From positions 1 through 32,035 of IMG/VR virus record IMGVR_UViG_2690316263_000015: a DNA stretch of 32,035 nt. One strand, written 5' to 3'. Made by a program: the position numbers and the translations under genes. Positions 2,592 to 31,996 of this stretch are shown here, in pieces (the first letter of the stretch is position 1; every line of letters begins with the position of its first letter). The notes under the pieces were generated by a model. It was given only the letters and a program-made list of their open reading frames with translations, ran no database searches and was not told the DNA's origin. This DNA is from a virus (Duplodnaviria; Heunggongvirae; Uroviricota; Caudoviricetes).

Positions 2592-3587
2592 GTGACCGTG
2601 AGAGCACTACTGACCCCTGAAATTGCCCCGCGTATGGGGATCGTATTGTTCAGGCCAGGTTCAGAGCTGATGCCCCTGTTTATGCAGGGGCGTGTCCTGC
2701 TGGAGCCTGAGCCGGAACGTTACTCATCTTTCGCCAGTGGTGCCGTTCCGGCGGCATCACAACCGCTGGCGGATGATCCTGCCGTTCGGGCCGTGTTCCG
2801 CAATGAGGCAGTGATCCGTCGTGCTGGTGGCGTGGAATGTCTTGAAAGCTGGTTACTTCGTGAAAAAGGCTGCCAGTGGCCTCATTCCGACTGGCACAGC
2901 GAGAACATGACCACAATGCGACACGCTCCGGGCGCAATCCGTCTGTGCTGGCACTGCGATAACCAGCTGCGCGATCAGTTCACGGAACGGCTGGAATCAA
3001 TGGCAACGGATAACTGTGCCCGCTGGGTGTTGTCTGTTGTGCGTCGGGATCTCGGTTTTGATGACAGTCACGTTGTGACAATGCCGGAACTGTGCTGGTG
3101 GCTGATTCGTAATGATCTGGCGGATGCCTTACCGGAAAGTGCAGCCCGTAAGGCACTGAGATTACCGAAGCCTGTTGTGCCATCTGTCACCCGGGAAAGT
3201 GACCTTGTGCCTTCGGTTCCTGCCACCAGCATCATCCAGGATAAAGCAAAAAAGGTGCTGGCGCTGAAAGTGGATCCGGAGTCGCCGGAGTCTTTTATGT
3301 TACGCCCAAAACGTCGCCGCTGGGTTAATGAAAAGTACACGCGCTGGGTTAAGACACAGCCGTGTGCATGTTGTGGAAAGCCCGCTGATGATCCCCACCA
3401 CCTGATAGGTCACGGTCAGGGTGGAATGGGAACAAAAGCGCATGACCTCTTTGTGTTGCCTTTGTGCAGAAAGCATCACGACGAGCTGCATGCGGATACC
3501 GTGGCATTTGAAGAGAAGTATGGCTCCCAGCTGGAGCTGATATTTCGTTTTATCGATCGTGCGCTGGCAATAGGCGTACTGGCGTAA
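2592..3587 (+). CDS. DUF968 (YdfU-like) protein with C-terminal Cys/His metal-binding motif
   Basis: 331-aa ORF; C-terminus CACCGKPADDPHHLIGHG ... LCRKHHDELH resembles DUF968 proteins found upstream of Q in lambdoid prophages. Start ambiguous (GTG 2592 or GTG 2598 after GAGGTG). Confidence 0.55.
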   Translation: MTVRALLTPEIAPRMGIVLFRPGSELMPLFMQGRVLLEPEPERYSSFASGAVPAASQPLADDPAVRAVFRNEAVIRRAGGVECLESWLLREKGCQWPHSDWHSENMTTMRHAPGAIRLCWHCDNQLRDQFTERLESMATDNCARWVLSVVRRDLGFDDSHVVTMPELCWWLIRNDLADALPESAARKALRLPKPVVPSVTRESDLVPSVPATSIIQDKAKKVLALKVDPESPESFMLRPKRRRWVNEKYTRWVKTQPCACCGKPADDPHHLIGHGQGGMGTKAHDLFVLPLCRKHHDELHADTVAFEEKYGSQLELIFRFIDRALAIGVLA

Positions 3588-3600
3588 GTGGAGAACGAGC

Positions 3601-4353
3601 ATGAACCTTGAAGCCTTACCGAAATATTACTCCCCAAAATCTCCAAAATTGAGCGATGACGCACCGACGACAGGCTCTGGTGGTTTAACAATTACGGATG
3701 TAATGGCTGCGCAGGGGATGGTGCAGTCGAAAGCACCGCTTGGGTTTGCCTTATTCCTGGCAAAAGTTGGTGTTCAGGATCCTCAATTTGCGATTGAAGG
3801 TCTGCTCAATTACGCGATGGCACTGGATAACCCGACATTGAACAAATTGAGTGAAGAAACCCGGTTACAGATCATCCCTTACCTTGTGAATTTTGCCTTT
3901 GCTGATTATTCCAGGTCTGCGGCAAGTAAGGCTCGCTGTGAGCATTGTGCTGGTACTGGATTTCATAATGTATTGCGCGAAGTGGTGAAACACTCCAGAA
4001 GCGGGGAATCTGTTATCAAGGAAGAGTGGGTGAAGGAACTATGTCAGCATTGTCATGGTAAGGGAGAAGTCAGCACAGCGTGCAGAGGGTGTAAGGGTAA
4101 AGGTATTGTCCTGGATGAAAAAAGGACCCGGCTTCATGGCACGCCTGTTTATAAGATTTGTGGGCGTTGCAATGGAAACCGGTTTAGCCGTTTACCAACC
4201 ACACTGGCGCGGCATCATGTCCAGAAGCTGGTACCAGACCTGACAGATTATCAGTGGTACAAAGGATATGCAGATGTCATTGATAAACTGGTTACAAAGT
4301 GCTGGCAGGAAGAAGCATATGCTGAGGCGCAATTAAGAAAAGTGACGAGATAA
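3601..4353 (+). CDS. antitermination protein Q-like late-gene regulator
   Basis: ATG 3601 after GGAGAA. 250 aa with paired Cys motifs (CEHCAGTG ... CQHCHGKG ... CRGCKGKG ... CGRCNG) as in Q-family antiterminators; followed by a promoter plus terminator pair. Confidence 0.7.
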   Translation: MNLEALPKYYSPKSPKLSDDAPTTGSGGLTITDVMAAQGMVQSKAPLGFALFLAKVGVQDPQFAIEGLLNYAMALDNPTLNKLSEETRLQIIPYLVNFAFADYSRSAASKARCEHCAGTGFHNVLREVVKHSRSGESVIKEEWVKELCQHCHGKGEVSTACRGCKGKGIVLDEKRTRLHGTPVYKICGRCNGNRFSRLPTTLARHHVQKLVPDLTDYQWYKGYADVIDKLVTKCWQEEAYAEAQLRKVTR

Positions 4354-4384
4354 ATGATTTTCGCCGAAGATGGCGACATAATGC

Positions 4385-4413
4385 TTGCATTTTTCAAAAA
4401 ATATGGATAAGAT
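4385..4413 (+). promoter_or_regulatory. putative Q-dependent late promoter (PR'-like)
   Basis: TTGCAT (4385-4390), 17-nt spacer, TAAGAT (4408-4413), about 30 nt downstream of the Q stop and about 45 nt upstream of an intrinsic terminator. The arrangement mimics lambda PR'/tR'. Confidence 0.35.
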
Positions 4414-4458
4414 TTTTCCAACGATGGGCTTTGTATGTCTACCGTTGATAAGATTTAA

Positions 4459-4486
4459 GAACCCGCCACTGAGCGGGTTTTTTTAT
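4459..4486 (+). terminator. intrinsic terminator (tR'-like)
   Basis: ACCCGC-cactga-GCGGGT stem-loop followed by a T7-8 run (aacccgccactgagcgggttttttta). Confidence 0.6.
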
Positions 4487-4606
4487 GCCTGAAAAACGGT
4501 ACAGGACGTTAAACGCGCTGGTGGTTGCGAATATTGGTCTTTCGGCTTGTATTTTTGTAAATCGATATATACTTATCTTGTGACCAGTAATGTCAGGGCA
4601 ATTGAT

Positions 4607-5350
4607 ATGAATGAAGCTTGTTCTGTTGTTTTTGTTCATTCCCCGTTTGTTGTGCTCTTTGAAGGAAAAGAGCTCTCTCTGGAAAGTGGTAGTGCACTTC
4701 TTGTCAGGGGGGGAGCTGGATCGTTATTGCCCTTTTCGGAATGTTTTCGGCGAATAAGTCTCAGTGAATCGACAATTATCCGTTACCTGTTGTGTGGAGA
4801 CGAAAAACAGGATGTAGTTTTAGTCCGGCAAATACCACGATATCTTTGCGTGAGTTTTCCCAAGGCAGAATTGATGGGCATCCTGATTGATTATCTTTGT
4901 GAGGAAAAGATTCATACGGACAATTTAGCGGAAATGCTTTCCTTTTCGTGTCTGGCGTTTTTCTCATCAGAGAAAATGTTTTCGTCGTTTCTGACCGCGT
5001 GTATTGGCAATATTAGTGACAGGCTTAGTGCATTGTTTCGTACGGACATTGCAGCAAACTGGACTCTGAGAGATGTGTCTTCGCGGTTATGTATCAGTGA
5101 AAGTTTGTTAAAAAAAAGACTGAAAGAAGAAGGCACCTGTTTCAGTGAGTTGTTGCTTACAGAGAGAATGAGAATGGCAGCAATGCTGTTGAATCAATCT
5201 CGTTGCGCCATCAACAGAATCGCTGCTCAGTGTGGCTATAATTTTACATCTTATTTTATCAGCGTATTCAGGAGTTATTTTGGTGTTACACCGGCAGGTT
5301 ACAGGATGGCTGCATTCAATGAGATGAGTTTAAGTGTTACTCAAGAATAA
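4607..5350 (+). CDS. AraC-family transcriptional regulator, AppY/EnvY-like (moron)
   Basis: ATG 4607. C-terminal double helix-turn-helix (WTLRDVSSRLCISESLLKKRLKEEGTCFSELLLTERMRMAAMLL ... AAQCGYNFTSYFISVFRSYFGVTPAGY); the N-terminal CSVVF motif recalls AppY. Gene is visibly AT-rich relative to neighbours and followed by its own terminator. Confidence 0.8.
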   Translation: MNEACSVVFVHSPFVVLFEGKELSLESGSALLVRGGAGSLLPFSECFRRISLSESTIIRYLLCGDEKQDVVLVRQIPRYLCVSFPKAELMGILIDYLCEEKIHTDNLAEMLSFSCLAFFSSEKMFSSFLTACIGNISDRLSALFRTDIAANWTLRDVSSRLCISESLLKKRLKEEGTCFSELLLTERMRMAAMLLNQSRCAINRIAAQCGYNFTSYFISVFRSYFGVTPAGYRMAAFNEMSLSVTQE

Positions 5351-5374
5351 TTGAATTTTGCACTCATTGAAAAC

Positions 5375-5399
5375 AGGCTCGCTGCGGCGGGCCTTTTTT
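5375..5399 (+). terminator. intrinsic terminator after the AraC-family gene
   Basis: AGGCTCGC-tgcg-GCGGGCCT hairpin followed by TTTTTTAT. Confidence 0.55.
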
Positions 5400-5537
5400 A
5401 TATCCGCGCCACGTCCGGCGCACATCAAAAAAACCACAGAGCCTTTCAGGGGTGAGCTTACGGGATGGTCAGTGTGACTTTCTCTGTGGGCTGGTCACCC
5501 CCGGGCGCAGGCTCACCCACTAAAAGGAAAAGTCACG

Positions 5538-5963
5538 ATGTTTGGTATTTTCAAAAAGAAAACCCGCAAGGCCATTACTGAAGTGAAGAAGATGGAGAAC
5601 CGCGACGCAGTGGAGGCGACCGTCTGGGGCGCGTATTCCATAGCATTCGCCGACGGCACCTGTGATGCGAAAGAAATCGCTGTACTGGAAAAAACCATTG
5701 CAGCACTTCCTGCCTTTGCGCCGTTCTCCGGTGAGATTGCACAAATGAGTGCAAATATCCGCGCCCGTTATGAAGCGTCACCTCGTAGTGCGAATGCTCA
5801 GGCTTTGCGTGAACTGGCTGATGTGGCAGGAACCGCCGAAGCGGTTGATGTGCTGTGCCTGTGTCTCGATATTGCTGACCAGGATGGCATTGGTCCGGAT
5901 GAAGAAGCGCAGCTCAAGAAAATTGCTCAGGCGCTGCAGTTGCCGCTGGAGCAGTACCTGTGA
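5538..5963 (+). CDS. TerB-family (tellurite-resistance TerB-like) protein
   Basis: ATG 5538 after AAAGGAAAAG. 141 aa; the fold pattern (VWGAYSIAFADGTCDAKEIAVLEK ... VLCLCLDIADQDGIGPDEEAQLKKIAQALQL) parallels the two DG-containing helical repeats of TerB. Confidence 0.65.
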   Translation: MFGIFKKKTRKAITEVKKMENRDAVEATVWGAYSIAFADGTCDAKEIAVLEKTIAALPAFAPFSGEIAQMSANIRARYEASPRSANAQALRELADVAGTAEAVDVLCLCLDIADQDGIGPDEEAQLKKIAQALQLPLEQYL

Positions 5964-6112
5964 AAAGTGCGCGCCTTGTGCTGGCTGCCATCCTGCTGTT
6001 TCTGGTAGTGGCGGTGGATTTCACCGGACGGCTGATGTCGGTGCTGGCAGATGGTGTGCTGGTGGCGATGGCGCTGGCCGTACTCTGGCCTTTACTGCGT
6101 AAATCTGAATAA
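5960..6112 (+). CDS. small hydrophobic protein (50 aa), hypothetical
   Basis: GTG 5960 overlaps the TerB stop (GTGA). Translation VKSARLVLAAILLFLVVAVDFTGRLMSVLADGVLVAMALAVLWPLLRKSE is almost entirely one or two transmembrane helices. Too short for the ORF track. Confidence 0.3.
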   Translation: MKSARLVLAAILLFLVVAVDFTGRLMSVLADGVLVAMALAVLWPLLRKSE

Positions 6113-6199
6113 CACCACACAAAAGGTATCTGCGGGTGCCTTTGACGGGTGTTTTTTACGGGTCGTTGGTGGCCCTTTTTTATTTACAGGAGAAAAAGT

Positions 6200-6592
6200 A
6201 TGTCTGAACCCTTGTCCGGTTCCGGTACGGCTGCGGCGCTCGGCGGGGCGACGGTATTCGGGCTGTTTACCGGAACGGATTTCGGGATTGTGTTTGGGGC
6301 GTTCGCTGGGGCGTTATTTGTGGCAACGATGCCGCAGGCGCTTTCAGCCTGGCGTGTGGCGGCGCATTTTCTGGTGTCGTTTATCGTTGGCGTGCTGGGT
6401 GCGCATGTGCTGTCAGCCTGGATTGCATCAAAAACAGGTTATGACGGTACATCGGCGGATGCACTGTGTGCGGTGCTGGTGGCGGTGGTGTCGGTGAAGA
6501 TTCTCTCGTTCATCCACCAGCAGGATATTGCATCGCTGGTGTCCGGCCTGTTCTCCCGCCTGCGGGGTGGAGGAGGCGGCAATGTTAAGTAA
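6200..6592 (+). CDS. putative holin (multi-transmembrane lysis protein)
   Basis: ATG 6200 after AGGAG (6188-6192). 130 aa with Gly/Ala-rich hydrophobic segments and a charged C-terminus; two genes upstream of the endolysin. Confidence 0.45.
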   Translation: MSEPLSGSGTAAALGGATVFGLFTGTDFGIVFGAFAGALFVATMPQALSAWRVAAHFLVSFIVGVLGAHVLSAWIASKTGYDGTSADALCAVLVAVVSVKILSFIHQQDIASLVSGLFSRLRGGGGGNVK

Positions 6593-6857
6593 CCTTCCCG
6601 GATTGCTGAATGTGGCGTTATGCACGGTTATCGTGCTGACGCTCTTTTTTTATCGTCGTCGTGATTCCAGACATAAACCGCTGATGTCATGGCTGGCCTG
6701 GTTGCTGATGCTGCTGTATGCCTTTGCGCCCCTCAGCTATCTGTGTGGTCGCCCGTTAGCAACGGGCTGGCTGGAAGTGTTTTTTAATCTGCTGTTCTGC
6801 GTGCTGGTGATACGCGCGCGCGGGAACGTCACAAAAATCTTTCCATTATTGAGGTGA
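6582..6857 (+). CDS. lysis-cassette membrane protein (holin/antiholin-like)
   Basis: ATG 6582 after GGAGGAGG, overlapping the upstream stop. 91 aa with about three hydrophobic helices (LLNVALCTVIVLTLFFY, WLAWLLMLLYAFAPL, VFFNLLFCVLVI). Stop overlaps the endolysin SD. Confidence 0.4.
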   Translation: MLSNLPGLLNVALCTVIVLTLFFYRRRDSRHKPLMSWLAWLLMLLYAFAPLSYLCGRPLATGWLEVFFNLLFCVLVIRARGNVTKIFPLLR

Positions 6858-6859
6858 AT

Positions 6860-7237
6860 ATGTCGGGTAAATTCAGATTCAGTCGTCGCAGCGAAAAGAA
6901 TCTGGAGGGCGTTAAACCACAGCTGGTTGCTGTCGTTCGCCGTGCGCTGGAGCTGACGGAGGTTGATTTCGGTATTACGGAAGGGCTGCGCACGAAAGAA
7001 CGCCAGAAACAGCTGGTCGCGGAAGGGAAAAGCCAGACCATGAACAGCCGCCACCTGACCGGTGATGCGGTGGATGTTGTTGCCTGGGTTGGCAGCCAGG
7101 TGTCATGGGACTGGCCTCTGTACGAGAAAATCGCGCAGGCATTTAAGCAGGCTGCCGCAGAGCTGGGAACAGCCATCGAATGGGGCGGGGACTGGCGGAC
7201 GCTTAAAGACGGCCCACATTTTCAATTGAAGCGATAG
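6860..7237 (+). CDS. endolysin, M15-family peptidase (L-alanyl-D-glutamate endopeptidase-like)
   Basis: ATG 6860 after GAGGTG. 125 aa; segments GLRTKERQKQLVAEGKSQTMNSRHLTGDAVDV and GGDWRTLKDGPHFQL match the VanY/M15 Zn-peptidase endolysin pattern. Confidence 0.75.
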   Translation: MSGKFRFSRRSEKNLEGVKPQLVAVVRRALELTEVDFGITEGLRTKERQKQLVAEGKSQTMNSRHLTGDAVDVVAWVGSQVSWDWPLYEKIAQAFKQAAAELGTAIEWGGDWRTLKDGPHFQLKR

Positions 7238-7253
7238 CTTGCAAAACATACAG

Positions 7254-7276
7254 GGCCGCCATGAGCGGCTTTTTTA
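7254..7276 (+). terminator. intrinsic terminator after the endolysin gene
   Basis: GCCGC-catga-GCGGC followed by TTTTTTATT. Confidence 0.5.
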
Positions 7277-7307
7277 TTGCTCAAAAAACGAAAGAACGGA
7301 GGTACGT

Positions 7308-30544: not shown

Positions 30545-31465
30545 TTATGATAGACCGTAGTATTTTTTCAGAGCCGCTGTAGCTGCTTGAGTTGCAGCAG
30601 CTATTCCTATGCCCAAAGTACCATGGGCTGCTTTACTCGCAATATTTGCCAACCATTTACTAACAGATTGACCATATTCACCACGTTTGTTAGCTATCGG
30701 GCCATCTTCACCAATAGCAATTTCTAAATCGTTAACATCAGATTTAGGGAACCCCTGAGCTGAGAGAAACTCTTTTAATGACTCAGTGTCGTTTTTTACG
30801 ACGTGGTTATTCACAGAAAATGAGTTTTCATTTCCGAAGTTTATGACAGTATTGTCTCCAAAAATTGAGTTATGGAATAATGAAGACGTGTCGATATTTT
30901 TAAGTTTTTCTGTCATGTTTTTCTCATCTGGTATTTCAGAAACTTGATCAGAAAGTTCAAGTATAAAATCAAGTAGCCGTGACCTGACCTGAGTTAAGAT
31001 GGAAGTAAAGTTATGTAGTGCGATCTCTTTATAACAGCGTGTTAACTCATAGCCTTTATCGATACCTTTGCAGTACTTAACTAACGCGTAATCTAAAGGA
31101 ATTGGCTGCTGAAGAGCATGGCTATCACCAGCATTGGTTACTAGTTCTTCGATTTGACTGATTGAAAGCCTCACATTACTGGTTGTAGCATCTTCATAGT
31201 CATCTTCACTTAGATAGCCAATCGGTAACGGAAAAGCTCTATATAGGCGAACGCCGTTGTTCAGATCTGCAAGAATTCTTGTGCCAACAATTCTATAATC
31301 TGGAAGGGAAACTGAATCAGGATAACCGTTTATCTCATGATTTACCCATGCAGCAAGCTCCTTTTTCCCGATAGAGAAAAGAAGGATCTTCGTTTTTATG
31401 AGAGCATTTGTTGTGCCTTCATCACCAGTACTTAGTATCTGAATGATTTCTTGCAGTTGGTTCAT
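30545..31465 (-). CDS. abortive-infection-like protein (AbiTii-type N-terminal domain suspected)
   Basis: 306-aa minus-strand ORF. N-terminus (LQEIIQILSTGDEGTTNALIKTKILLFSIGKKELAAWVNHEINGY) resembles AbiTii-domain proteins as I recall them; C-terminus has an Ala/Gly-rich amphipathic tail. AT-rich. Family call unverified. Confidence 0.45.
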   Translation of the reverse strand: MNQLQEIIQILSTGDEGTTNALIKTKILLFSIGKKELAAWVNHEINGYPDSVSLPDYRIVGTRILADLNNGVRLYRAFPLPIGYLSEDDYEDATTSNVRLSISQIEELVTNAGDSHALQQPIPLDYALVKYCKGIDKGYELTRCYKEIALHNFTSILTQVRSRLLDFILELSDQVSEIPDEKNMTEKLKNIDTSSLFHNSIFGDNTVINFGNENSFSVNNHVVKNDTESLKEFLSAQGFPKSDVNDLEIAIGEDGPIANKRGEYGQSVSKWLANIASKAAHGTLGIGIAAATQAATAALKKYYGLS

Positions 31466-31633: not shown

Positions 31634-31996
31634 TGGTGGAGCTGGCGGGAGTTGAACCCGCGTCCGAAATTCCTACATCCTCGGTACTACATGCTTAGTC
31701 AGTCTTTACATTCGCTTGCCAGCTGCGGACGGACACGCCACTAACAAACTAGCCTGATTAAGTTTTAACGCTTCAACCCCAGGCAGGGCTTCCACGCGAT
31801 CTCTTTTGGGTTTGACCTCTCTTGATCCCCGTCCTAAGAGCGGAGGCTAGGGAGAGAGGGCTCTAAGCAGGTTATTAAGCTGCTAAAGCGTAGTTTTCGT
31901 CGTTTGCGACTATTTTTTGCGGCTTTTTACGAGGCCAACCGCCCCTCGGCATGCACCTTGGGTTTCGCAAATCCCGTCGAATCCAGAATCAGCCCC
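31634..31996 (-). ncRNA. ssrA: tmRNA (transfer-messenger RNA, SsrA)
   Basis: Reverse complement reads GGGGCTGATTCTGGATTCGACGGG ... GGACGCGGGTTCAACTCCCGCCAGCTCCACCA, 363 nt, with the tag reading frame GCAAACGACGAAAACTACGCTTTAGCAGCTTAA (ANDENYALAA) at 31875-31907. Confidence 0.95.

Follow-up and report, generated by a model that had tools for sequence, protein, structure and literature searches.

A conserved, covarying RNA leader precedes tciA/tciB and other cargo genes of prophages

Approximately 135 nucleotides upstream of the tciA start codon (positions 5403-5537 of the 32,035-nucleotide stretch of viral DNA that was analysed, hereafter the window) constitute a conserved structured RNA with five predicted, covarying helices. 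Comparison with related loci indicates that this leader is a widespread RNA structure, shared by unrelated phage cargo genes and absent from Rfam. The two genes behind it are identified by homology as the tciA/tciB module of phage P1, which is already annotated, and they are prophage late-operon cargo, located between the gene for antiterminator Q and the holin genes. The pair is another copy of an annotated accessory module and adds nothing new; the uncatalogued part is the leader. The features of the region are as follows.

5375-5400, + strand: intrinsic terminator found by a terminator scan, with a stem at 5375-5394 plus a T-run; it ends the AraC-like gene
5406-5421, + strand: helix HP1, GCGCC-ACGTCC-GGCGC, a 5-bp stem with a 6-nt loop; 5 of 5 pairs compensated, 98.8% of cells paired
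5434-5441, + strand: 5′ strand of stem A, CCACAGAG, pairing with 5482-5489 and abutting the anti-Shine-Dalgarno strand
5442-5446, + strand: 5′ strand of helix O, CCTTT, the anti-Shine-Dalgarno strand, pairing with AAAGG at 5523-5527
5449-5458, + strand: 5′ strand of helix B, GGGGTGAGCT, which contains GGGTGAGC and pairs with 5510-5518
5461-5468, + strand: 5′ strand of helix H, CGGGATGG, pairing with 5495-5503; compensation in 8 of 8 pairs
5482-5489, + strand: 3′ strand of stem A, CTCTGTGG, within the loop of helix H
5495-5503, + strand: 3′ strand of helix H, TCACCCCCG, from covariation pair counts
5510-5518, + strand: 3′ strand of helix B, GGCTCACCC, which contains GCTCACCC; from covariation pair counts
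5523-5529, + strand: Shine-Dalgarno region of tciA, AAAGGAA, of which AAAGG is the 3′ strand of helix O; typical spacing to the ATG at 5538
5538-5963, + strand: tciA, predicted 141-aa cytoplasmic protein of TerB fold; ATG at 5538, TGA at 5961-5963
5960-6112, + strand: tciB, 50-aa DUF3927 protein; GTG start at 5960-5962
6113-6199, + strand: spacer of 88 nt between tciB and the holin gene, the 3′ boundary of the cassette

The covariance model of the leader matches 108 copies at E < 1e-4, every one of them sense to the downstream gene and together comprising only ~22 lineages below 85% identity. Across these copies 94.5% of the cells are paired and compensatory changes are observed in 29 of the 37 pairs, where the pair counts of HP1, O, B and H are inflated because the alignment was fitted to these helices by the covariance model. 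By comparison, shuffles give 14.4 ± 2.1 compensated pairs and slid controls 7-9. Cells with double changes number 285, against 65 ± 12 in the shuffles, and extra pair types 72, against 52 ± 2.4; covariation at the observed level was not seen in any of the 500 shuffles. Pairs of the G-U type are frequent, which suggests that the structure belongs to RNA of the + strand. When 28 diverse copies were aligned with MAFFT and folded with RNAalifold, without the covariance model, HP1 alone was recovered, because the sequence alignment fails elsewhere.

Stem A is absent from the covariance model and still covaries, with CG replaced by UA in 14 sequences, AU by GC in 26 and AU by UA in 6. In an alignment-free test on 22 clusters, 14 different 7-mers occur at this place, and most have their exact complement at an unchanged distance. 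Because its 3′ strand is located inside the helix H loop, stem A would be pseudoknotted with helices O, B and H. Helix O is paired in 98.9% of the cells and shows compensatory changes in three of its five pairs; the flanking pair A5448-U5521 is G-C in 30 sequences. For helix B together with the two pairs that flank helix O, 9 of 11 pairs are compensated and 97.6% of the cells are paired. Helix B is mostly invariant in close relatives, with some single disruptions, and its compensation is found in diverged second copies of the motif, which score 38-61 bits and keep the helices. Changes in helix H include GC to AU, and A.C to GC or AU; its strands read AGGAGTG/CACTCCT in Erwinia phages and CAGGGAG/CTCCCTG in the L286 group. 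HP1 in the Erwinia phages likewise has different stems (CACATC/GATGTG and CCTGTC/GACAGG), with a similar loop, TCGCCC.

A structured leader at this place had been proposed by the first-pass annotation on the basis of nested inverted repeats, and the repeats are present where it put them, GGGTGAGC at 5450-5457 and GCTCACCC at 5511-5518; of the shorter repeats that it named, GTGAC occurs at 5474-5478 and GTCAC twice, at 5494-5498 and 5532-5536. From this one sequence the structure is not beyond chance: an 8-nt inverted repeat is expected ~0.08 times in ~100 nt by simple arithmetic, and the single-sequence fold of 5440-5545 has z = -1.35, since 19 of 200 shuffled sequences fold at least as stably. 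Comparison with relatives settles the question, the nested structure being conserved with covariation across the 108 copies. The proposal holds in this part; its GTGAC/GTCAC pairs are invariant, and its start at 5440 falls short of the best-supported extra stem, CCACAGAG/CTCTGTGG, which begins just outside, at 5434. The pairing of GTGAC with GTCAC (5474-78 with 5532-36) is uninformative: it is 94% pairable, without variation, and the alignment-free comparison gives a weak signal, 5.2 vs 4.6 of 6 positions. The inner helix of this single-sequence fold, 5459-5465 with 5481-5488, competes with stem A for the 3′ strand of the latter; it is paired in only 78.7% of the cells, has no excess of covarying pairs and was rejected. 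In the nested minimum-free-energy fold of 5403-5550 (-54.1 kcal/mol), GGGGUGA is paired with UCACCCC and the Shine-Dalgarno sequence is mostly unpaired. With O and B forced, the fold reaches -52.1 kcal/mol, 2 kcal/mol worse, and thermodynamics alone therefore does not predict occlusion of the Shine-Dalgarno sequence for this copy.

The leader (5403-5537) has no match at gathering score in a search of the whole window against Rfam 15, whose families include riboswitches, thermometers (among them Lambda_thermo), ribozymes, STnc100 and AgvB. At E ≤ 10 over 5300-6250, the leader core is clear of matches and weak terminator-like matches end at ~5405, the upstream terminator weakly resembling the 3′ end of STnc100. 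In 12 related loci the motif is again clear of Rfam matches, and tRNAs, STnc100, AgvB, C4 and isrK are found elsewhere. Three candidate identities were rejected. The 8-bp acceptor-like stem and the tRNA neighbours in relatives raised a tRNA remnant, for which ARAGORN finds a tmRNA gene only. The double-pseudoknot topology raised an HDV-like ribozyme; a G.U pair at the start of the first stem is typical of that class, and stem A has a 5′ strand that starts with C and no Rfam match. The long hairpin raised an integron attC site, and the RYYYAAC/GTTRRRY cores that are the signature of attC are missing. With regard to a possible riboswitch, the predicted fold is multi-helical and pseudoknotted; the genes that share it (TerB, TAXI binding protein, KilA-N/Ant) have no obvious metabolic theme in common.

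Before tciA homologues the identity of the leader is 82-100%, and before TerB proteins of only 45% identity it is ~85% at the nucleotide level. The genes behind it are TciA type 1, the 45%-identical TerB paralogue (60.2 bits against Pfam TerB), a TAXI/NMT1-like binding protein, P22_AR_N, ANT and KilA-N, and in nearly all of 115 distinct copies an ORF starts ~10 nt past the Shine-Dalgarno sequence of the motif. Upstream, the motif follows an intrinsic terminator in 87 of 93 distinct contexts and tRNA-Cys in 4 of the 93. Of complete E. coli genomes, 24% contain it, with up to six copies per genome; O157:H7 EDL933 and other Shiga-toxin-producing strains contain several. It also occurs after tRNA-Cys in Erwinia jumbo phages, with 71-73% identity, where a tciAB-like pair lies among tRNAs and is followed by a TAXI gene. 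A search with filters off found no second copy in the window, and the motif has no match upstream of stx2e in phiP27. The first-pass annotation did not name the pair as P1 tciA/tciB, nor the leader as a mobile motif of unrelated genes.

TciA scores 29.9 bits against Pfam TerB (PF05099; cut-off 24.4, E = 7.5e-7), and fold searches predict an all-helical, TerB-like fold (TerB-like structures 2H5N and 2OU3), so that its earlier reading as a TerB protein is borne out by the profile and the predicted fold alike; a sequence search of the PDB gave no meaningful match. Two acidic motifs are present, ADGTCDAKE (residues 38-46) and DQDGIGPDEE (residues 114-123). Residues D43, D114, D116 and G117 are invariant among 21 TciA homologues, and D39, G40 and E46 nearly so; paired acidic motifs of this kind in TerB are thought to bind metal. 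TciA belongs to PHROG 632 and TciB to PHROG 1470 ('TciB-like'), and in RefSeq the names tciA and tciB are already attached to the pair in hundreds of E. coli prophages, as they also are in phage records.

The tciB start overlaps the tciA stop as GTGA, in agreement with the first-pass annotation, which also described the 50-codon ORF ending at 6112. TciB scores 57.8 bits against Pfam DUF3927 (PF13064; cut-off 25), its sole match, holin families giving none. It is a predicted two-helix membrane hairpin, with a conserved basic N-terminus, DFT(S/G)R turn, WP and basic C-tail. The conservation expected of the small ORF is confirmed in every homologous locus examined: tciB adjoins every TciA homologue checked, those of P1, O157 EDL933 and the Erwinia jumbo phages included, and with TciA type 1, TciA type 2 and the Erwinia homologues the two genes nearly always overlap or are no more than 6 nt apart. 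A single fused TciA-TciB protein of 196 aa is present in the database (P0061) and could be a sequencing artefact. Synteny, coupling and this one fused protein suggest that TciA and TciB may interact.

The order of genes in the region is Q (3601-4353), the AraC-like gene, tciAB, the holin genes (6200-6857) and the endolysin gene (6854-7237). The terminator at 5375-5400 is the 5′ limit of the conserved cassette; prophage homology begins at ~5375, and the left homology break-points lie at or within this terminator. At the other end, the terminator scan reveals a terminator-like hairpin (6160-6175 plus a T-run) inside the spacer between tciB and the holin gene. The GC content is 53-57% across 5450-6050 vs ~41% in the upstream AraC-like gene, in line with the earlier description of the TerB gene as GC-rich. 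No sigma-70-like site was found by the scan of the + strand over 3500-7300, and by eye the leader has only poor -10 candidates. No other ter genes occur near tciA, its neighbours being Q, the AraC-like gene, the holins and the endolysin, so the context is not that of a ter operon. A search of PADLOC-DB 2.0 with TciA, TciB and the AraC-like protein gave no family at E ≤ 1.

The equivalent slot in other phages accommodates other genes. In phiP27 it carries stx2e; tciA is absent there, the lysis cassette (holins and endolysin) is the same, and tciB is reduced to its last ~95 nt, with 85% identity to phiP27 over 6018-6200, the spacer included. In EDL933 the slot contains tRNAs, the leader motif, TerB and DUF3927, and STnc100, AgvB and an esterase gene intervene between the TerB/DUF3927 pair and the lysis genes. 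These observations, and the description by Tree et al. (2014, PMC4104026) of a site downstream of PR′ at which morons insert, support the earlier suggestion that the position is cargo space. The succession of terminator, structured leader, tciA, tciB and terminator probably represents, as part of the explanation given below, a self-contained piece of prophage cargo, or 'moron'.

The leader is most likely a cis-acting translational control element for prophage cargo genes, as the comparative data suggest. Its transcription would come from polymerase that reads through the upstream terminator, as Q-modified polymerase does once the prophage is induced. Helix O would then hold the ribosome-binding site, keeping translation of the cargo low or conditional, until the structure is opened by a trigger, for which a protein, an sRNA, a ligand, temperature and RNA processing are candidates. 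TciB would be produced through translational coupling to tciA and may anchor or partner TciA at the inner membrane, and the two proteins may exert a non-essential accessory function on the host envelope or on ion or stress physiology; a role of the pair as a conversion or exclusion module is possible. Taken as a whole, this explanation (a moron cassette in which a leader that pairs the ribosome-binding site gates tciA, with coupled tciB, as an accessory pair) is the one we favour, with some reserve. A broader proposal is more tentative, and we hold it to be possible rather than probable: the leader may represent a new class of ~130-nt pseudoknotted phage regulatory RNA that senses a signal and gates conversion or accessory genes, and the copies of which double as joints for cargo exchange. 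The signal in that proposal could be a phage- or host-derived protein, an sRNA, a small molecule or a cleavage event, and its scope covers the late-operon slots of lambdoid phages, including the Shiga toxin slot of related phages, and the Erwinia jumbo phages.

Several other explanations of the leader and of the gene pair have to be weighed against this translational control. It is rather improbable that the leader is conserved as DNA only, as a recombination 'joint' or mobile regulatory cassette that swaps cargo without any RNA function. A DNA joint would explain that conservation is higher in the leader than in the genes that follow, that it flanks different cargo genes and occurs in up to six copies per E. 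coli genome, and that the left break-points of homology lie at or inside the terminator; shuffling mediated by PeSL elements is documented in T4-type phages (PMC2839356). Recombination, however, selects for identity and not for the compensatory double substitutions found in 29 of the 37 pairs, and it does not account for the tolerance of G-U pairs on one strand only, nor for the persistence of the helices in copies too diverged to recombine (Erwinia, 71-73%; second copies, 38-61 bits). In addition, the fixed register of the motif to the Shine-Dalgarno sequence and the ATG argues for a role in the mRNA. The ideas of a DNA joint and of an RNA leader are mutually compatible. At the RNA level, the leader might chiefly be an element for processing or stability, cleaved by RNase III, E or P or self-cleaving, which frees the cargo mRNA, with the pairing of the ribosome-binding site being secondary or relieved by the cut. 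The motif starts right behind an RNA 3′-end or processing signal (mostly a terminator, in 87 of the 93 contexts, and in the Erwinia jumbo phages tRNA-Cys), HP1 would serve as a protective 5′ hairpin after cleavage, and O, B and H would together form a long irregular duplex of the kind cut by RNase III, as such duplexes are in the lambda N leader and the T7 early mRNAs; the C4 RNA of P1 is, moreover, a non-tRNA substrate of RNase P. We nevertheless regard this explanation as unlikely, as no known ribozyme family is matched in Rfam, ARAGORN detects no tRNA-like element, and the C at the start of the stem A 5′ strand disfavours an HDV-like topology.

Two further explanations have a still lower probability. 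The first-pass annotation had suggested an unrecognised part in lysis timing, and TciA and TciB might accordingly be a functional component of the lysis cassette, for instance an antiholin-like timer. Here and in about two-thirds of close homologues, 88-100 nt separate the pair from the holin gene downstream, and many holins and antiholins are small membrane proteins with two helices, as TciB is predicted to be. This adjacency is not conserved, which makes a role in lysis timing unlikely: the P1 pair lies in the ban/tRNA region, the EDL933 pair is separated from the lysis genes, the Erwinia pair is found among tRNAs, and at other loci the nearest 3 kb are free of holin genes. With the same holins and endolysin present in phiP27, which lacks tciA, with DUF3927 and no holin family matching TciB, and with a terminator-like hairpin between tciB and the holin gene, we consider a lysis function very improbable. 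Hardly credible, finally, is a stand-alone sRNA of the type of PasA/C/D, STnc100 and AgvB of the same prophage region. Its A-rich stretch at 5427-5433 could presumably bind Hfq, and prophage sRNAs do cluster in this lambdoid region (PMC4104026; preprint 10.64898/2026.05.13.724894), but the motif neither contains nor follows a promoter-like site, is not followed by a terminator, and runs directly into a Shine-Dalgarno sequence and start codon in nearly all copies. The complementarity of the EDL933 motif to the neighbouring STnc100 is not in excess either (z = -0.58).

If the leader controls translation, it offers a testable route by which prophages silence or time their conversion genes, the control of which has so far been studied mostly as transcription (Q, PR′) and through 3′ sRNAs. 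The leader could also be useful as an annotation marker of cargo boundaries and is a candidate Rfam entry. As a possible recombination joint, it may help to explain the mosaicism of the region.

The tciA-tciB-tciC operon of P1 (NC_005856, 70233-70929), reportedly annotated by Lobocka and colleagues in 2004, has the same gene order and the same stop/start overlap, and its products are 87% (TciA) and 55% (TciB) identical to those described here. The P1 operon has a third small ORF, tciC, whereas no ORF of at least 30 aa starts within the 88-nt spacer behind tciB. The P1 pair is located in the C1-controlled ban/tRNA region and the present pair in a Q-dependent late operon. P1 tciA also lacks a structured leader, the DNA homology beginning exactly at the ATG. 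The P1 tciABC genes are non-essential in a CRISPRi screen (PMC10695390). In P1 as here, function is assigned by homology only, the names referring to tellurite and colicin resistance and phage inhibition. In the terZABCDE clusters, which are associated with resistance to tellurite, colicins and phages, the partner of TerB is TerC, whereas TciA is accompanied by the 50-aa DUF3927 protein.

The position of the cassette, between Q and the lysis genes, is that of the moron site of lambdoid and Stx phages, often after tRNAs; an insertion site downstream of PR′ in lambdoid prophages is said to have been described by Juhala and colleagues in 2000. In EDL933 the convergent sRNAs STnc100 and AgvB lie behind the TerB/DUF3927 pair, matching the moron pattern of Tree et al. 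(PMC4104026). The papers on the moron site cover coding sequences and 3′ sRNAs, whereas the element described here is a 5′ leader; no description of a conserved 5′ leader at this site was found in the literature searched.

The leader resembles the PeSL elements (Arbiol et al. 2010, PMC2839356) in being a short conserved non-coding sequence with a terminator stem-loop, repeated before non-essential genes in plastic regions, and a plausible substrate for shuffling. PeSL elements, however, consist of a sigma-70 promoter and a terminator, whereas the leader has no promoter-like site and, unlike PeSL, comprises ~110 nt of covarying multi-helix RNA, of which the ribosome-binding site is a part. The Shine-Dalgarno sequence is paired with a strand upstream of it in the early transcripts of T4 lysozyme (e), in the leader of lambda N, which has an RNase III site, and in the leader of rpoS. 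The tciA leader would share with these a Shine-Dalgarno sequence that is paired in a long helix, and translation that depends on the transcript, on processing or on a trans factor. It has no sequence or Rfam kinship with them, and differs in being larger, pseudoknotted as predicted, and common to unrelated genes of different phage families.

The window comprises a phiP27-like lambdoid prophage adjoining the tmRNA gene, in which the genes relevant here are arranged as follows:

3601-4353, Q antiterminator gene, upstream of tciAB
4547-5350 (+), AraC-family gene, AT-rich, between Q and the tciAB cassette
5538-5963, tciA, a TerB-family gene of 141 codons
5960-6112, tciB, a DUF3927 gene of 50 codons
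6200-6592 and 6582-6857, holin genes, downstream of tciAB
6854-7237, M15 endolysin gene, followed by HNH endonuclease and terminase genes
30545-31465 (-), 306-aa ORF, adjoining the tmRNA gene on the same strand
31634-31996 (-), tmRNA gene, complete (295.8 bits, tag ANDENYALAA), at the window's right end

The position of the tmRNA gene suggests that the prophage is integrated at ssrA.

As described in the first-pass annotation, the GTG start of tciB overlaps the TGA stop of tciA (GTGA). Both ORFs have a G+C content of 53-57%, against ~41% in the AraC-type gene upstream. The assignment of TciA to the TerB family is borne out by Pfam (29.9 bits, threshold 24.4), while TciB matches DUF3927 (57.8 bits, threshold 25). 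In PHROGs the products correspond to phrog_632 'tellurite resistance' (5.6e-65) and phrog_1470 'TciB-like' (3.1e-25), and RefSeq labels the pair 'tellurite resistance TerB family protein' and 'DUF3927 family protein'. A DNA search gives 81% nucleotide identity to tciA of phage P1, the P1 proteins being 87% (TciA) and 55% (TciB) identical. Positions 5350-6200 are nearly whole in 165 complete Escherichia coli genomes, and some match occurs in 521 of 5,426. The gene pair is an ordinary one that already bears a name. Neither protein matches the defence-system models. The sole functional data found are from a CRISPRi screen in which P1 tciA, tciB and tciC were non-essential (PMC10695390); other literature repeats the homology-based name.

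In TciB homologues a basic N-terminus precedes two hydrophobic helices, which are separated by a DFT(S/G)R turn; the second helix closes with WP and leads into a basic tail. TciB is read as a predicted two-helix membrane hairpin. The small ORF is kept beside the TerB gene at all loci compared, either overlapping or within 6 nt. One database protein of 196 residues (P0061) contains both PF05099 (TerB) and PF13064 (DUF3927). It may be a genuine TciA-TciB fusion or else an artefact of sequencing or of a frameshift; a genuine fusion would speak for physical association of the two proteins. Contigs labelled Pseudomonas lundensis (L008), Bacillota MAG (L004) and Kocuria sabuli (L016) also encode TciA homologues, which share 88-97% identity with the E. 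coli protein; the latter two contigs carry the leader and the first does not. These labels most likely stem from contamination or mis-binning and not from the actual hosts.

Upstream of tciA, the inverted repeats noted earlier were located in the sequence: GGGTGAGC at 5450-5457 and GCTCACCC at 5511-5518, with GTGAC at 5474-5478 and GTCAC at 5494-5498 and 5532-5536. Taken alone, the sequence of the leader makes no convincing case: 5440-5545 folds with a z-score of -1.35, a promoter scan finds no promoter-like site in the leader, and an Rfam search gives no match to it. Reading of sequence variants led to the proposal of five helices:

5406-5410 with 5417-5421, helix HP1
5434-5441 with 5482-5489, stem A
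5442-5446 with 5523-5527, plus two flanking pairs, helix O
5449-5458 with 5510-5518, helix B
5461-5468 with 5495-5503, helix H

The Shine-Dalgarno sequence AAAGG forms the 3' strand of helix O, and stem A, which crosses O, B and H, is a pseudoknot. For the window's own sequence, a nested fold with the Shine-Dalgarno sequence largely unpaired is 2 kcal/mol better than one in which O and B are forced. Forcing stem A in the nested model costs 14 kcal/mol, so that this stem, if formed, would be a pseudoknot atop O, B and H or transient during transcription. In the minimum free energy structure of 5403-5550, ACAUC after HP1 (5422-5426) pairs with GAUGU (5537-5541) across the start codon; in the common variant AUAUC this predicted pairing would persist with one G-U.

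The case for the structure comes from comparison. Nearly all tciA homologues are preceded by a stretch 82-100% identical to the 163 nt before the ATG, which start from a terminator at 5375-5400; in P1 and a few others the leader is unrelated. A pattern search places the leader also before a TerB paralogue that shares only 45% identity with TciA and before an unrelated secreted protein, which Pfam assigns to the NMT1/TAXI-type binding proteins. Diverged copies (71-73% identity by BLAST) are present in the lytic Erwinia jumbo phages Caitlin (L218), pEa_SNUABM_6 (L219) and Asesino (L222), of ~240 kb, at about 1100-2850 of these loci. There a tRNA-Cys lies directly 5' of the leader, followed by terB, a tciB-like ORF (59-60 aa, 29-31% identical to TciB, under the Pfam threshold) and a TAXI gene, an order that links TerB/TciB to the TAXI gene. 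In enterobacterial prophages the TAXI gene has its own leader copy.

By nhmmer followed by a covariance model, more diverged second copies were identified in several prophages (L213 8792-8943, L114 8852-9002, L042 5095-5242, L003 5943-6089, L116 14208-14355, L249 4227-4374, L006 5478-5603 and L134 6959-7094); none was found in the window. Where examined, they are followed by P22_AR_N, ANT/KilAC, KilA-N or two unknown ORFs, and the second copy of pPE4 (L003) sits after the lysis genes. Of 5,426 complete E. coli genomes, 1,290 carry the leader, with up to 6 copies per genome. In E. coli AMA1167 (L304, 2501-2742) a 71% identical copy lies directly 5' of a truncated DUF3927 gene at a locus without a TerB gene, between IS100, IS4 and ISEcp1 elements. 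In 87 of 93 distinct upstream contexts, HP1 begins a few bases past the end of an intrinsic terminator, and a tRNA takes the terminator's place in 4; downstream, nearly every copy has an ORF starting ~10 nt past the Shine-Dalgarno sequence. These boundaries indicate that the motif is a 5' cap for cargo genes within longer transcription units.

A covariance model of HP1, O, B and H only, built from 47 close sequences and searched against 100 representative loci, yields 108 matches at E < 1e-4, all sense to the downstream gene. Standard pairs occupy 94.5% of cells, against at most 52% with the partners slid. Compensatory changes occur in 29 of 37 pairs (14.4 ± 2.1 shuffled, 7-9 slid), both-side changes in 285 cells (65 ± 12 shuffled), and 72 additional pair types are seen (52 ± 2.4 shuffled). 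According to the tool's notes, relatedness inflates the counts of pairs and of pair types least among these measures. Four of the five helices were used in fitting the alignment, which covers a modest number of independent lineages. Stem A was left out of the model and is therefore supported independently: CG is replaced by UA in 14 sequences, AU by GC in 26 and AU by UA in 6. An alignment-free test on 22 clusters of less than 85% identity finds 14 different 7-mers next to the anti-Shine-Dalgarno strand, with a 7-mer 34-48 nt downstream complementary at no fewer than 6 of 7 positions in 19 clusters. RNAalifold recovers HP1 from a plain MAFFT alignment, and the HP1 stems are entirely different in the Erwinia phages. 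The helix preferred by single-sequence folding, an alternative to A and H, reaches only 78.7% pairing, with no excess of covarying pairs. The structured leader suspected earlier is real, and more interesting than had been supposed.

The best-supported reading from these comparisons is a cis-acting mRNA leader in which helix O would hold the ribosome-binding site and gate translation of the cargo gene, tciB being expressed through coupling to tciA. The abundant G-U pairs indicate an RNA with the sequence of the coding strand. Such an RNA would be made when polymerase reads through the upstream terminator, as the Q-modified enzyme does after induction; its structure would repress translation, and TciB may tether TciA to the membrane. 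Covarying helices, a register with the start codon that stays fixed and gene neighbours that vary all argue against a purely DNA-level recombination joint, like the PeSL cassettes of T4 (PMC2839356), and against a stand-alone sRNA. The same observations make a role of TciA and TciB in lysis timing, as raised in the first-pass annotation, unlikely: the pair adjoins ban and tRNAs in P1 and lies among tRNAs in the Erwinia phages, and several tciA loci have no nearby holin. The genes are not bound to lysis genes. An RNA processing or stability element is a further possible reading, and one compatible with the translational control proposed here.

The suggestion that tciAB occupies cargo space before the lysis cassette agrees with phiP27, where the stx2e genes fill exactly this slot. 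phiP27 and SerU-LTIIb lack tciA, yet are 85-87% identical to parts of 6018-6199: all that survives in phiP27 is the final ~95 nt of tciB and the 88-nt spacer ahead of the holin, and in SerU-LTIIb the spacer. Judging by this remnant, phiP27 seems to derive from a phage whose tciAB was replaced by stx2e. Within the spacer (6113-6199, +) there is a terminator-like hairpin at 6160-6175. The AraC-family gene is probably a separate cargo gene; copies 99% identical precede tciA in viral contigs L063-L065, L073 and L077, and its best NCBIfam similarities are to YdeO, GadX and HilD, all under cut-off. It resembles the prophage-encoded GAD/LEE regulators of EHEC.

In O157:H7 EDL933 (L303) the slot holds two tRNAs, a TerB paralogue with DUF3927, an sRNA region (3730-3984) with STnc100 and, convergent after it, AgvB, and an esterase gene. 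STnc100 also follows the DUF3927 gene in L213, L114, L220 and L221 and the TAXI gene in L249, with Rfam scores of 81-146 bits, within a few nt of the upstream stop where annotated. Rfam finds neither sRNA in the window, where the sole such resemblance is a weak one of the terminator before the leader to the STnc100 3' end.

No prior description of the leader was found in open-access text, including that on tciA/tciB, DUF3927 and STnc100, or in Rfam 15. A 2026 preprint on the neighbouring Pas sRNAs lists TerB among conserved neighbours and searched the flanks only with Rfam models; PasA and PasC map directly upstream of the holin in EPEC (10.64898/2026.05.13.724894), a place shared, by position alone, with the spacer at 6113-6199. 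The EDL933 slot is the 'moron insertion site downstream of PR'' of Tree et al. 2014, who described cargo coding sequences and 3' convergent sRNAs and no 5' element (PMC4104026). With its well-supported architecture, the leader is a candidate for a new cis-regulatory RNA family of phage cargo genes.
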